In this document: in pieces, positions 21 through 4,378 of the stretch
How the letters are laid out: each line of letters begins with the position of its first letter
Numbering within the stretch: the stretch's first letter is position 1
DNA from: a virus
Reading direction: 5' to 3' (one strand)
Length of the DNA stretch: 29,240 nt
Virus genome (UHGV): UHGV-0275034
Notes under the pieces: generated by a model
Told to the model about the DNA's origin: nothing
Databases searched by the model: none
What the model saw: the letters and a program-made list of their open reading frames with translations, nothing else
Program-made: the position numbers and the translations under genes

Positions 21-311
21 ATGACGGGCAAAGAGGCAATTATTCATTACCTGGGGACGCATAATAGCTTCTGTGCGCCGGACGTTGCCGCGCTAACAGG
101 CGCAACAGTAACCAGCATAAATCAGGCCGCGGCTAAAATGGCACGGGCAGGTCTTCTGGTTATCGAAGGTAAGGTCTGGCGAACGGTGTATTACCGGTTT
201 GCTACCAAGGAAGAACGGGAAGGAAAGATGAGCACGAACCTGATTTTTAAGGAGTGTCGCCAGAGTGCCACGATGAAACGGATATTGGCGGTATATGGAG
301 TTAAAAGATGA
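21..311 (+). CDS. ren: Ren-like protein (lambda ren homologue, 96 aa)
   Basis: ATG at 21 preceded by AAAGGAG; 96-aa product matching my recollection of lambda Ren in length and sequence; sits immediately upstream of the nin region and a tR2-like terminator. Confidence 0.6.
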   Translation: MTGKEAIIHYLGTHNSFCAPDVAALTGATVTSINQAAAKMARAGLLVIEGKVWRTVYYRFATKEEREGKMSTNLIFKECRQSATMKRILAVYGVKR

Positions 312-336: not shown

Positions 337-369
337 AGGCCTGCTGGTAATCGCAGGCCTTTTTATTTG
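337..369 (+). terminator. Intrinsic terminator (tR2-like) downstream of ren
   Basis: Perfect 8-bp stem AGGCCTGC/GCAGGCCT with 8-nt loop, followed by TTTTTATTT. Confidence 0.7.
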
Positions 370-383
370 GGGGAGGGTAAATC

Positions 384-590
384 GTGGCTGAGTTAATTTT
401 CTCTGCATTGAGGATTCTCGGTGCTATGTGGATGGTGGCGACGTTCATTGTTGTTGCCAGAAGTTTTGTCCGGTTGGTAGGCGAAGGTAAAGACCTGGTA
501 GGTGTGCTTTTCGGTAGCATTTTCCTGTGGGTGATTATCGGTGTTATGCCTGTCGCTGTAGCAAAAATGGCGTGGCGTTTTGTGAGTTGA
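384..590 (+). CDS. Small hydrophobic protein (68 aa, two predicted TM helices), GTG start
   Basis: GTG at 384 with GGAGG about 8 nt upstream; translation is dominated by two hydrophobic stretches; no family recognised. Confidence 0.5.
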   Translation: MAELIFSALRILGAMWMVATFIVVARSFVRLVGEGKDLVGVLFGSIFLWVIIGVMPVAVAKMAWRFVS

Positions 591-607
591 ACTGATGGTA
601 AATATCG

Positions 608-928
608 ATGGACGAATCAAGAAAGCAGTTTGAAGAAAGTTGGTTGCGACGTGGAGGCGAATCCTCAGACCTTATCCGTTACCCTGAAAATCACCATGAA
701 ATTGGCAGTGGTAATATTGGTGGTCAATACGTGATGGACGATGTTCAAGGCCACTGGCAAACGTGGCAGGCATCGCGATCAGCTATTGAAATAACCGCGC
801 CAAAGTTTATCGACAGCAGAGAAGCATTAGCCAAAGGGTTTACTGTTGATTATTCCAATGGCTTCGGTGATGCAATGGATGCTTATGAGGAAAACATCCG
901 CGCTGCTGGAATCAAAGTGAAGGAGTGA
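608..928 (+). CDS. Hypothetical phage protein (106 aa), paralogue of 1386..1742
   Basis: Shares N-terminal MDESRKQFEE, central W-x-W-QASR-x-AIE and C-terminal IRAAGIK motifs with the downstream ORF; the first ~30 nt of both genes are near-identical. Confidence 0.6.
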   Translation: MDESRKQFEESWLRRGGESSDLIRYPENHHEIGSGNIGGQYVMDDVQGHWQTWQASRSAIEITAPKFIDSREALAKGFTVDYSNGFGDAMDAYEENIRAAGIKVKE

Positions 929-1116
929 GCATGAGTCGACGAAGTAGCTTTTTGGGGTTTGTAATATTCCTGTCCTGCACTGGTTACATCGTAATCTGGT
1001 CAATTTCGAACATTGACCGTGGCGGGGAATATCTCATTGTAATGTTCTTTCCTTTGTTTCTTGGGTGGTACGCCGCAAGGTTGCTGGAAGAATGGGGTTA
1101 CAGGCATAAAAAATAA
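925..1116 (+). CDS. Small hydrophobic protein (63 aa, two predicted TM helices)
   Basis: ATG overlaps the upstream stop (ATGA coupling); strongly hydrophobic translation. Confidence 0.5.
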   Translation: MSMSRRSSFLGFVIFLSCTGYIVIWSISNIDRGGEYLIVMFFPLFLGWYAARLLEEWGYRHKK

Positions 1117-1175
1117 AGGAGTGTTCAGTGAAGCAAACCCTTTTTTATTGGATTAAGAGCGAGTGGTAAGTACCG

Positions 1176-1358
1176 ATGGTAAATGCATTTATTTGTAGTT
1201 TATTTCTTGTCGCGATTTTTCATGGATTCCTTCTGATGATGAGTTTTGTTCTCTGGAATAATGGATATCGCATATTGGGAGTAGGTTTTGTTTTACGGTT
1301 TTCAGTTGTCTGCGCGTTGCTACCGATAATTATGGCGACTATCAAATATTATTGGTAA
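1176..1358 (+). CDS. Small hydrophobic protein (60 aa, two predicted TM helices)
   Basis: ORF with hydrophobic translation in an AT-rich stretch; no family recognised. Confidence 0.4.
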   Translation: MVNAFICSLFLVAIFHGFLLMMSFVLWNNGYRILGVGFVLRFSVVCALLPIIMATIKYYW

Positions 1359-1385
1359 CCCAAAAAATCATCGATGGAGAGTGAT

Positions 1386-1742
1386 ATGGACGAATCAAGA
1401 AAGCAGTTTGAGGAATACGTTGCCAAAAAATTGAGATTACCATTCGAGATGATAACCGAGGCAAGAAATGGTGATAGGTACTTCGCATTTTCAAGCATGG
1501 ATATTCGTCACTCCTTAAATGAGTGGTGGACTTTATGGCAGGCATCGCGAGCAGCTATTGAACTGGATATCGACTGGCCAGAATCGAATGACGACTTTTG
1601 GAAAGATGGTGAAGAAGGTGCTTATGCGATGGGTTATGAGGATGGGCGTGACAAAACGGTAATTGCAGTAATGAAAGCTATCAGAGCCGCTGGAATTAAA
1701 GAGAAGAATTTCGATGAAGCAAACAATATTCCTCCGAACTAA
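1386..1742 (+). CDS. Hypothetical phage protein (about 118 aa), paralogue of 608..928
   Basis: Start chosen at ATG 1386 (MDESRKQFEE, GGAG 8 nt upstream) to match the paralogue; the ORF track allows an earlier ATG at 1374. Confidence 0.6.
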   Translation: MDESRKQFEEYVAKKLRLPFEMITEARNGDRYFAFSSMDIRHSLNEWWTLWQASRAAIELDIDWPESNDDFWKDGEEGAYAMGYEDGRDKTVIAVMKAIRAAGIKEKNFDEANNIPPN

Positions 1743-2124
1743 GCAACAACAGCAAGCCGCAATCAACGCCATCCTCGCAACACCACTCGATAAAGACAAG
1801 CCAGTCACCATCCGCATTACTGACTACAAGCGCAACCTTGACCAGAACGCAAAATTTCACGCGATGCTGGCGGATATCGCTCGTCAGGTTCAATGGTGCG
1901 GCAAATGGTTAAAACCAGAACAATGGAAGGTTTTGTTGATCAGCGGTCATGCAGTGGCAACAAAACAGGAAGCTGATGTTTTGCCCGGGCTTGAAGGCGA
2001 ATACGTCAACATTCGCGAAAGCAGCGCGCAGATGAGTGTGAAGCGTATGGCAAGTCTTATCGAGTACACAACAGCCTGGGCTATTGGTCATGGTGTCAGA
2101 TTTACCGACAGGAGGTACGAATGA
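1714..2124 (+). CDS. ninB: NinB (Orf-family recombination mediator)
   Basis: 136-aa product aligns with lambda NinB as I recall it (including a conserved LDQN motif); sits at the head of the nin gene string. Confidence 0.8.
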
Positions 2125-3567: not shown

Positions 3568-3857
3568 TGGCTAACCTACGCAAAGAAGCGCGCGGAAGAG
3601 AATGCCAGGTACGTATTTACGGCGTATGCAATGGCAATCCTGAAACCACAGTTCTGGCACATTACCGGATGGCTGGAATTTGCGGAACGGGAATGAAGCC
3701 TGACGACCTGATCGGCGCATGGGCTTGTAGTGACTGCCACGCGGAGATCGACCGACGCACCCGGATTCTCGACAACAAAGACGCCAGACTTTACCACCTC
3801 GAAGGCGTGATCAGGACGCAGGCGATACTGCTGAAGGAGGGGAAGATTAAGTCATGA
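3567..3857 (+). CDS. ybcO: YbcO-like putative nuclease (DUF1364 family)
   Basis: 96-aa product with the Cys/His pattern RGRECQVRIYGVCNGNPETTVLAH ... CSDCHAEIDRR that I recall from DLP12 YbcO; start overlaps the upstream stop (TAATG). Confidence 0.65.
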   Translation: MANLRKEARGRECQVRIYGVCNGNPETTVLAHYRMAGICGTGMKPDDLIGAWACSDCHAEIDRRTRILDNKDARLYHLEGVIRTQAILLKEGKIKS

Positions 3858-4378
3858 ACGGTAAAAGATATCCAACACAAAAAGAAATCAATGAATTGTA
3901 TGAATATAATAGCGAAACAGGTTTGTTTATATACAAGAGAAGAGAAAGTGTAAGAGAGTGCTGGAATTCAACATATGCCGGTAAGATTGCTGGTTCTATA
4001 GATGAAAAAGGATACGTTCGTATATCTGTAAATAAAAAAGTTTGTCGAGCTCATAGAATCGCATGGATATCCTTTTATGGAAGTGAACCTGATGGGGAAA
4101 TTGACCACATAAATGGAGTTAAAAGCGATAACAGAATATGCAATTTGCGCGTTGTAGATGATAAACAGAACTCAAGGAACAGAAAAAAGCCTATTAATAA
4201 TCGCTCTGGAGTAATGGGGGTTGCCTACTATAAGAAGAATAAAAAGTGGGGCGCATATATAAACAGTGATAATAAAAAGATATTTCTTGGATTATACGAT
4301 GACATATCTCTAGCCGTTAATGCCAGAAAATTGGCGGAATCACGATTGGGGTATCACCATAATCATGGGAGAGGATAA
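3854..4378 (+). CDS. HNH homing endonuclease with AP2-type DNA-binding domain
   Basis: HNH motif region (IDHINGVKSDNRICNLR ... NSRN) followed by an AP2-like segment (SGVMGVAYYKKNKKWGAYI); gene is markedly AT-rich relative to its neighbours. Confidence 0.75.
   Translation: MNGKRYPTQKEINELYEYNSETGLFIYKRRESVRECWNSTYAGKIAGSIDEKGYVRISVNKKVCRAHRIAWISFYGSEPDGEIDHINGVKSDNRICNLRVVDDKQNSRNRKKPINNRSGVMGVAYYKKNKKWGAYINSDNKKIFLGLYDDISLAVNARKLAESRLGYHHNHGRG

Follow-up and report, generated by a model that had tools for sequence, protein, structure and literature searches.

Tandem alleles of the phage protein family PF26207/PHROG 343 are mosaics of two exchangeable cassettes on a conserved framework

Mosaicism of lambdoid phages reportedly proceeds through short conserved sequences, the "linkers" of Susskind and Botstein. 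Exchange driven by Red/Rad52-like recombinases has been described in phage mosaicism (PMC3945230, PMC2327257). Phage recombinases act on short or diverged homologies, and the minimum given for Red-beta is about 30 bp (PMC3945230). Here, we analyzed two tandem genes, A and B, at the beginning of the virus genome UHGV-0275034, a stretch of 29,240 nucleotides (nt) that is called the window below. Both genes encode members of the protein family PF26207/PHROG 343, in which two variable segments, the N cassette and the C cassette, are held between three conserved framework segments, J1, J2 and J3. As in lambdoid mosaicism, near-identical and unrelated sequences meet at sharp transitions, exchange occurs in short patches of identity, the genes lie in the nin region beside orf/ninB, and natural reciprocal recombinants exist. 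In contrast to it, the boundaries in A and B are intragenic, three per gene, and each is placed on a conserved structural element. Since the boundaries coincide with structural elements, the products stay in frame and are probably foldable, and a combinatorial repertoire of two cassettes results. The mode of variation is a particularly clean intragenic case of the lambdoid mosaicism already known, in a family that is catalogued and uncharacterised.

A second system offers an analogy. The Opa proteins of Neisseria are surface proteins in which the hypervariable regions HV1 and HV2 lie on a conserved framework and reassort between paralogous loci. The PF26207 family likewise has two hypervariable segments, discrete types, recombination in the framework and the possibility of several copies per genome. 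However, the two families are unrelated in protein and in biology. The phage protein is cytoplasmic and acidic whereas Opa is an outer-membrane antigen, the phage variation is population-wide with one or two copies per genome, and nothing in the phage family points to programmed or high-frequency switching. Colicin and pyocin immunity proteins and type II antitoxins also resemble A and B, as they are small, acidic and largely helical and carry a variable specificity region on a conserved scaffold. Unlike them, A and B have no cognate toxin gene, no conserved partner and no similarity to them in sequence or fold, and the position of the operon implies the lytic cycle.

A first-pass annotation of the window had described A and B as a paralogous pair with near-identical starts and differing middles. 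Both open reading frames (ORFs) were found as described, and each protein contains the motifs MDESRKQFEE, W-x-x-WQASR-x-AIE and IRAAGIK. At the DNA level, J1 is identical at 29/30 nt, the first 26 nt exactly, and J2 at 26/27 nt. J3 is less similar (22/27 nt; 896-922 versus 1680-1706). The DNA patterns of J1 and J2 each occur exactly twice in the window, with 0 expected from 100 shuffles. BLASTP of the two proteins gave 40/116 identities (34%; E=4e-10), and each protein matched PHROG 343 over its full length, A with E=3e-30 (residues 1-106) and B with E=5.6e-31 (residues 1-115). Thus, the similarity is significant and not confined to a few residues, and A and B are true paralogues of one family. 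The divergence of the middles is also real, but it occupies two separate segments instead of one, amino acids (aa) 11-52 and 62-96 in A and 11-50 and 60-98 in B, with WQASRxAIE between them. At degenerate positions, the codon choice of A and B is the same at 8/9 positions in J1 and 7/7 in J2, together 15/16 (P=4.7e-6 under the codon usage of the window). In J3, it is the same at 5/8 positions, which is not significant (P=0.11). The cassettes of A and B, in contrast, are unalignable. This contrast between J1/J2 and the cassettes excludes a duplication followed by uniform divergence.

The cassettes were typed by clustering 209 complete proteins of the family. All relatives retain J1 (MDESRKQFEE or a variant), J2 (W-x-x-W-Q-A-S-R-x-x-I-E) and J3 (I-R-A-A-G-I-K-V-K-E). 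The N cassettes between J1 and J2 and the C cassettes between J2 and J3 fall into discrete types that are unrelated in sequence, and pairwise cassette identity is bimodal, either <=30% or >=70%. As lower bounds, at least 43 N types, at least 20 C types and 76 combinations were distinguished. The N type of A (N_A) was found with 20 C types, and the C type of A (C_A) with more than 15 N types. N_B was joined to 6 C types and C_B to about 35 N types. In the set retrieved with the B query, C_B is the commonest type (71/209 proteins), and it is frequent in Shiga toxin (Stx)-converting phages. Reciprocal recombinant proteins were present, one combining N_A with C_B (N_A·C_B; P0004) and the other N_B with C_A (N_B·C_A; P0034). 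The nucleotides of J1 and J2 are invariant across the enterobacterial lambdoid set despite the many types of cassette that border them; those of J1 are preceded by at least five different upstream contexts and followed by at least four types of N cassette. J3 exists in two nucleotide versions, one tied to C_B and the other common to all cassettes ending in KVKE.

We then mapped the crossovers at 99 loci (the window, 6 annotated records, 80 IMG/VR contigs and 12 genome contigs), from which all family genes were extracted. In locus L036, which carries an N_A·C_B gene, 153/156 nt to the left of J2 are those of A and 179/180 nt to the right are those of B. Its flanks agree with this assignment, as 245/250 nt match the sequence upstream of A and 290/300 nt match that downstream of B. 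The switch lies inside a 15-nt run of identity, TGGCAGGCATCGCGA, in J2, and the gene is precisely the one expected if a crossover had joined the two copies of J2 and removed 772 nt. The opposite recombinant, N_B·C_A, was found in L072, where 148/150 nt to the left of J2 are those of B and 136/138 nt to the right are those of A; the switch lies inside the 11-nt run CAGCTATTGAA of J2. Three of the four window cassettes recur elsewhere at 97-99% nucleotide identity in other combinations, C_A having been compared only within the N_B·C_A recombinant. J1 and J3 also act as context boundaries. In L009 and L012, B directly follows orf68, the gene that precedes A in the window, which fits a crossover in J1. 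In P0166, the C_A cassette is joined to the J3 and tail of the B type, which fits a crossover in J3. At these fixed points, the identity switches abruptly from at least 97% to no similarity, and both reciprocal classes occur in nature, which are the marks of a mosaic gene. The source of diversity in the family is the exchange of its two cassettes at the short conserved segments J1, J2 and J3. Because the variation lies between genomes and not within one, neither a diversity-generating retroelement nor an invertase is necessary as an explanation.

The exchanges would be homologous recombination, probably carried out by phage recombinases. The near-identical framework DNA would supply homology patches of 11-30 nt in which cassettes are swapped, and N types, C types and flanking modules could then reassort freely. 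A crossover between the two copies in the window at J1, J2 or J3 would delete 778, 772 or 784 nt, respectively, and leave a single-copy gene; such products are seen elsewhere. The pair in the window was assembled from two pre-existing alleles and did not diverge in place; unequal or inter-phage recombination may have brought the two together. What was a pair of "hypothetical proteins" is now defined as a two-cassette, three-junction mosaic gene with natural crossovers mapped to 11-15 nt. With it, the use of very short homologies by phage recombination systems, the adjacent Orf/NinB included, could be measured on a compact natural substrate.

The copy number varies across phages, a point raised in the first-pass annotation. 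Two copies were found at 5 of the 99 loci, namely the window, UPEC_U013 (99.7% identical to the window across both genes), L005, L015 and L054. All five have the same tandem layout, in which copy 1 ends in KVKE or KVKG and is followed by a 457-nt spacer and by copy 2 with C_B. ninB comes after copy 2 wherever the tandem locus extends far enough. Both cassettes differ between the copies in all five loci, as would be expected if shared cassettes destabilise the tandem. Among 5426 complete E. coli genomes, a 121-nt probe over the junction of copy 1 and spacer was covered to at least 80% in 139 (about 2.6%). Tandem pairs are the minority state, a single copy being usual among phages. Wherever the spacer is present, its identity is 93-100% and a family gene always comes after it; it also occurs without copy 1. 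The nucleotide identity of ninB is 93-99% across related loci, except for a distant Pluralibacter locus (79%). Since ninB is conserved across the same loci, the hypervariability is confined to the family gene.

A structure of A was predicted with AlphaFold2 (AF2) from a family alignment of 83 sequences. The mean predicted local distance difference test score (pLDDT) was 81 and the predicted template modelling score 0.69. The model of A consists of a helix (2-14), an ill-defined excursion in which residues 32-36 have a pLDDT below 50, a helix (44-58), a strand (61-63), short helices, a further helix (86-99) and a strand (103-105). J1 lies in the N-terminal helix, J2 comprises the end of helix 2 and a short strand, and J3 the end of the last helix and the terminal strand. 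The conserved junctions are thus predicted to form regular secondary-structure elements, and the least confident stretch (32-36) falls within the N cassette. Searches of the PDB by sequence, with the single proteins and with the family profile, gave nothing below E=0.07. A Foldseek search of the PDB with the model of B gave nothing at E<=0.001, and no solved structure resembled the model of A or of B. In BFVD, only uncharacterised phage proteins were matched.

Additional modules were observed in some relatives. An optional third module can be added in frame at the N terminus, either a 32-aa CxxCxGxG zinc-ribbon-like module or, in Skate-like virulent phages, a 36-aa module (MRWAIKHKSGRTLFVTSDEF...); some proteins have both. 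Examples of such extensions are P0130-P0164, P0127-P0128, P0216, L088 (1372-1695) and L099 (2387-2764). P0345 and P0364 contain tandem N-type domains. The N-type domain (F-E-x-W ... W-x-x-W-x-A-S-R) also exists alone, sometimes beside a full family gene (upstream ORF of L098). These arrangements suggest that the N and C parts are separate domains and that the N half is an independent one.

The distribution of the family was examined by a large protein search, which gave more than 200 relatives for each query, A and B. Nearly all of these bear a precomputed PF26207 (Phage_phiTE_015) assignment, which is also found on the 98%-identical cluster representatives of A (P0121) and B (P0001). RefSeq labels a homologue of B (118 aa, 2 residues differ) as "phiTE_015 family protein". 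Local Pfam-A and NCBIfam scans of A and B gave no match; for Pfam-A, the local copy presumably predates the PF26207 model. Members of PF26207, PHROG 343 and the RefSeq phiTE_015 family share their size (about 90-120 aa), the three motifs and a position after the replication genes in lambdoid phages, and both window proteins are full-length members. A search of 1.8 billion representatives with the family profile gave 1507 clusters of 50% identity at E<=1e-3. The proteins are acidic (median isoelectric point, pI, 4.95). Prophages with the family occur in E. coli, Salmonella, Shigella, Cronobacter, Hafnia, Enterobacter, Erwinia and Pantoea. In other lambdoid phages, a family gene is located at the equivalent position, just after the replicative helicase. 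The family is present in most Stx-converting phages, which are medically relevant, and in virulent siphoviruses such as Salmonella phage Skate, and some part of the A/B region was matched in 2013/5426 complete E. coli genomes (37%). A literature search by the family names and RefSeq accessions found no paper that mentions it. PF26207 is a family catalogued by name, for which no assigned function, structure or publication was found, and the cassette architecture is absent from the annotations found.

Based on these results, we consider it probable that A and B are two alleles of PF26207/PHROG 343, composed of the framework J1-J3 and two swapped hypervariable cassettes; a host-interaction role in the lytic cycle is proposed more tentatively. 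Several points weigh against this explanation. The J2 crossover intervals of 15 and 11 nt (27 nt with one mismatch) are below the approximately 30 bp quoted for efficient Red recombination; the events must therefore be rare or aided by flanking homeology. The same pattern would arise from illegitimate recombination if in-frame products were then selected, and selection for in-frame, foldable products may shape the observed set. The direction of change, deletion from a tandem ancestor or assembly of a tandem, was assigned at no single locus. The matrix of cassette combinations is biased, as the word-indexed searches retrieved only proteins with a cassette in common with A or B, and its empty cells are meaningless. 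The AF2 model of B is weaker than that of A (pLDDT 71), and residues 68-87 of its C cassette are below 50. For the functional part, which is drawn from context and sequence, neither the fold nor the sequence searches found a characterised relative.

The probable time of expression follows from the position of the genes. The window starts in the early-right operon of a P22-like lambdoid prophage, and A and B are in tandem within its nin region. An intrinsic terminator after ren, which resembles lambda tR2 in sequence, precedes them. The segment around it (308-383) is 93-100% conserved in most related loci, irrespective of the content downstream. A scan of the + strand at positions 1-2400 of the window found no sigma-70-like promoter. 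In lambda, genes beyond tR2 belong to the delayed-early operon of pR, which is active in the lytic cycle but not in lysogens. Because the terminator lies between ren and A/B, the two genes can be assigned, by the lambda paradigm, to the antitermination-dependent delayed-early nin operon, and they are probably expressed in the lytic cycle.

A host-interaction role is proposed because the genes have an antitermination-dependent accessory position, the proteins are small and acidic, temperate and virulent phages both carry them, their discrete diversity is localised against conserved neighbours, one cassette type is under purifying selection, and two alleles are occasionally carried. More specifically, but only tentatively, A and B could be small acidic lytic-cycle proteins that contact factors of the host or of competitors. 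Counter-defence or evasion of defence sensing would be the most plausible purpose of such contacts. A core activity would then reside in the constant scaffold, the two cassettes would be exchangeable recognition or evasion surfaces, and two copies would broaden the range. The localised diversity next to a conserved ninB, together with the purifying selection on one type, is what would be expected of genes in an arms race and makes the family a reasonable candidate for screens of counter-defence and host takeover. A broader proposal, that PF26207 is a widespread combinatorial counter-defence or sensor-evasion module of enterobacterial phages, with an alpha/beta scaffold, two exchangeable recognition cassettes and two alleles widening the coverage of host defences, seems to us rather unlikely in this full form. 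If it were true, phages could reshuffle their N and C specificities through framework sequences that are proficient in recombination, and each discrete type of cassette would correspond to a discrete target in the host. The interest of the family would rise considerably if the cassettes were specificity determinants in phage-host conflict.

Four other explanations were weighed. In the first, the family gene is a neutral accessory ORF, whose framework is all that the protein needs and whose cassettes are junk tolerated in loops after illegitimate recombination. Such an ORF would agree with the wide variation of cassette lengths, with the fragments and frameshifted copies that are common in databases, and with the fact that no function of the family is known. 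However, when N_A of the window was compared with that of gp032 of the virulent Salmonella phage Skate, the nonsynonymous divergence (dN) was 0.066 and the synonymous divergence (dS) was 0.74. This ratio (dN/dS about 0.09) shows that the cassette is a selected protein module common to a temperate coliphage and a virulent Salmonella phage, and it weakens the neutral explanation for the one cassette type that was tested. The cassettes are, moreover, discrete conserved types, and the longer ones share deep motifs (GxY in N, G-Y/F-x-x-G in C), which favour divergent homologues over random inserts. We regard neutrality as improbable. The "specificity" segments of the first-pass annotation fare better, in that the segments are exchangeable, occur as discrete types and, for one type, are under purifying selection.

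In the second explanation, the conserved blocks are functional DNA or RNA elements, such as a protein-binding site, a regulatory RNA or a translational signal, and the protein similarity is secondary. The synonymous positions of J1 and J2 are indeed conserved over many lambdoid loci, the translation-initiation region falls in J1, and an AAGGAG in J3 is placed as the ribosome-binding site of the downstream ORF. J2 of Skate, however, retains the amino acids while 6 of about 7.8 synonymous sites differ, and J1 and J2 also vary at synonymous sites in other genera (L089, L090, L092 and L098). Hence no universal constraint on the nucleotides keeps J1 and J2 nearly identical among lambdoid phages; their near-identity reflects recent shared ancestry in one recombining gene pool. 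The invariant residues (F8, W50, W53, S56, R57, G101 and K105 in the numbering of A) are features at the protein level, and scans of the whole window with Rfam (gathering thresholds) and for tRNAs returned nothing. Given the synonymous divergence of J2 in Skate, the idea of a nucleotide element was dropped as very improbable.

The third explanation, equally improbable, takes A and B as antitoxins or immunity proteins that neutralise adjacent small hydrophobic toxins (orf68 for A, orf61 or orf60 for B), with the cassettes setting the cognate specificity. In the window, small predicted membrane ORFs do directly precede each copy, and A and B are small, acidic proteins of discrete "types". Across the loci, however, the upstream neighbour is not conserved. 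It is a small membrane ORF at about half of the loci, and at about 40% it is a basic soluble DUF7301-like or winged helix-turn-helix-like protein, an HNH endonuclease or another protein, with at least six unrelated kinds in all. The protein that RefSeq names DUF7301 is basic and soluble in L004 and L006 and is distinct from orf68 of the window. orf68 itself is the upstream neighbour in about one third of the loci and is one among several alternative genes there. Downstream, ninB, the spacer or another sequence follows. The cassette type does not track the neighbour, since allele B follows either orf68 or orf60, and virulent phages such as Skate carry the family among unrelated small genes. No PADLOC model matched A or B. 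The pairing with the small membrane ORFs was dropped because the neighbours are variable. The analogy with immunity or antitoxin-like families that had been drawn beforehand is likewise unsupported, for want of a conserved partner gene and of a PADLOC match and in view of the position downstream of a tR2-like terminator.

The fourth explanation is the one favoured by the first-pass annotation, a local tandem duplication with diversification of the middle, taken here as divergence by point mutations while selection was relaxed or diversifying. It suits two paralogues on one strand at a distance of 778 nt, in which the ends and the middle motif are conserved. It can nevertheless be set aside as barely credible, since the synonymous sites of J1 and J2 are essentially undiverged beside unalignable cassettes, there are two variable regions, three of the four cassettes recur recombined in other contexts, and the spacer is an independent module.

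The features of the locus are listed in Table 1.

Table 1. Features at the beginning of the window, from ren to Q
Feature	Position	Strand	Description
ren	21..311		PHROG 142 match
tR2-like intrinsic terminator	337..370	+	AGGCCTGCTGGTAATCGCAGGCCT then TTTTATTTGG T run; 8-bp stem with 6 G-C pairs
orf68	384..590	+	68 aa, predicted small membrane protein; PHROG 1165, E=2e-37; maximum Kyte-Doolittle 19-residue score about 2.5
Gene A	608..928	+	106 aa; PF26207/PHROG 343; allele N_A·C_A; pI 4.9
J1 of A	608..637	+	Framework block encoding MDESRKQFEE; start of helix 1
N cassette of A	638..763	+	Type N_A: SWLRRGGESSDLIRYPENHHEIGSGNIGGQYVMDDVQGHWQT
J2 of A	764..790	+	Framework block encoding WQASRSAIE; end of helix 2 and strand 1; mapped crossover site
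C cassette of A	791..895	+	Type C_A: ITAPKFIDSREALAKGFTVDYSNGFGDAMDAYEEN
J3 of A	896..928	+	IRAAGIKVKE and stop codon
Spacer module	929..1385	+	457 nt; two small hydrophobic ORFs
Spacer ORFs	931..1116 (orf61, 61 aa) and 1176..1358 (orf60, 60 aa)	+	Each with predicted membrane helices
Gene B	1386..1742	+	118 aa; PF26207/PHROG 343; allele N_B·C_B; pI 4.7
J1 of B	1386..1415	+	Framework block
N cassette of B	1416..1535	+	Type N_B: YVAKKLRLPFEMITEARNGDRYFAFSSMDIRHSLNEWWTL
J2 of B	1536..1562	+	Framework block
C cassette of B	1563..1679	+	Type C_B: LDIDWPESNDDFWKDGEEGAYAMGYEDGRDKTVIAVMKA
J3 of B and tail	1680..1742	+	IRAAGIKEK, then 11-aa tail
ninB (Orf recombination mediator)	1714..2124	+	PF05772, E=6e-56; downstream anchor of the locus
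Further genes after ninB, in order			ninE, ninX, ninF, Rha/KilAC antirepressor-like gene, ybcO, HNH endonuclease, rusA, Q

Gene B has an alternative in-frame ATG at 1374. The start at 1386 is favoured, as it fits the family alignment, has a GGAGAG Shine-Dalgarno sequence 6 nt upstream and corresponds to the 357-nt coding sequences that RefSeq gives for the homologues in L005 and L006. In L004 (NZ_CP058596.1, 3779-4135), the RefSeq homologue of B from UPEC_U013 is shortened to 81 aa by an internal Met start (3890..4135). The full 118-aa ORF is intact there and is annotated whole in other genomes, which points to an inconsistency of the RefSeq annotation.

At its 3' end (1707-1742), B lacks a stop codon directly behind the family domain. 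Its reading frame, which differs from that of ninB, continues over the first 29 nt of ninB and so adds the 11-aa tail. At other loci, the tail of C_B cassettes varies with the downstream module and is NFD, NFR or NFDEANIHASQRSNQK. The tail of B looks like a by-product of the mosaic boundary.

Within 914-933, gene A ends with the codons AAA GTG AAG GAG TGA, and the AAGGAG, which encodes the K-E of J3, is placed 7 nt ahead of the ATG at 931. The AAGGAG of J3 likewise precedes the ATG of ninB in L072 (3270-3290). To judge from this spacing, it probably doubles as the ribosome-binding site of the next ORF, whichever follows. A 3' sequence of the J3 type also terminates an unrelated DUF7301 gene upstream in L006, from E. 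coli O103 ML775 (2290-2325). These cases suggest a shared gene-end and ribosome-binding linker at the left edge of the spacer module.

The two spacer ORFs (61 and 60 aa) had no match in PHROG, Pfam or NCBIfam and are not annotated by RefSeq in UPEC_U013. Their strand and spacing, with the AAGGAG before the first, suggest translation, and we list them as putative coding sequences. Because the spacer is so nearly identical wherever it is present, its conservation is uninformative on this point. A relic of the ninB start in the spacer was considered, as an SD-like AAAGGAGTG and the GTGAAGCAAAC that follows it weakly resemble a junction of gene end and ninB start (1124-1138 versus 1710-1724, about 13/15 nt, and 1110-1123 versus 914-927). 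This could reflect an older arrangement in which copy 1 abutted ninB. The resemblance is possibly due to chance, and the candidate was rejected as too weak.

Two observations concern HNH endonuclease genes near the family. In the nin region of the window, the HNH endonuclease ORF between ybcO and rusA (3854-4378; PF13392, E=1e-16) is probably a homing-endonuclease-type insertion. In L100, a similar NUMOD4/HNH gene lies directly upstream of the family gene.

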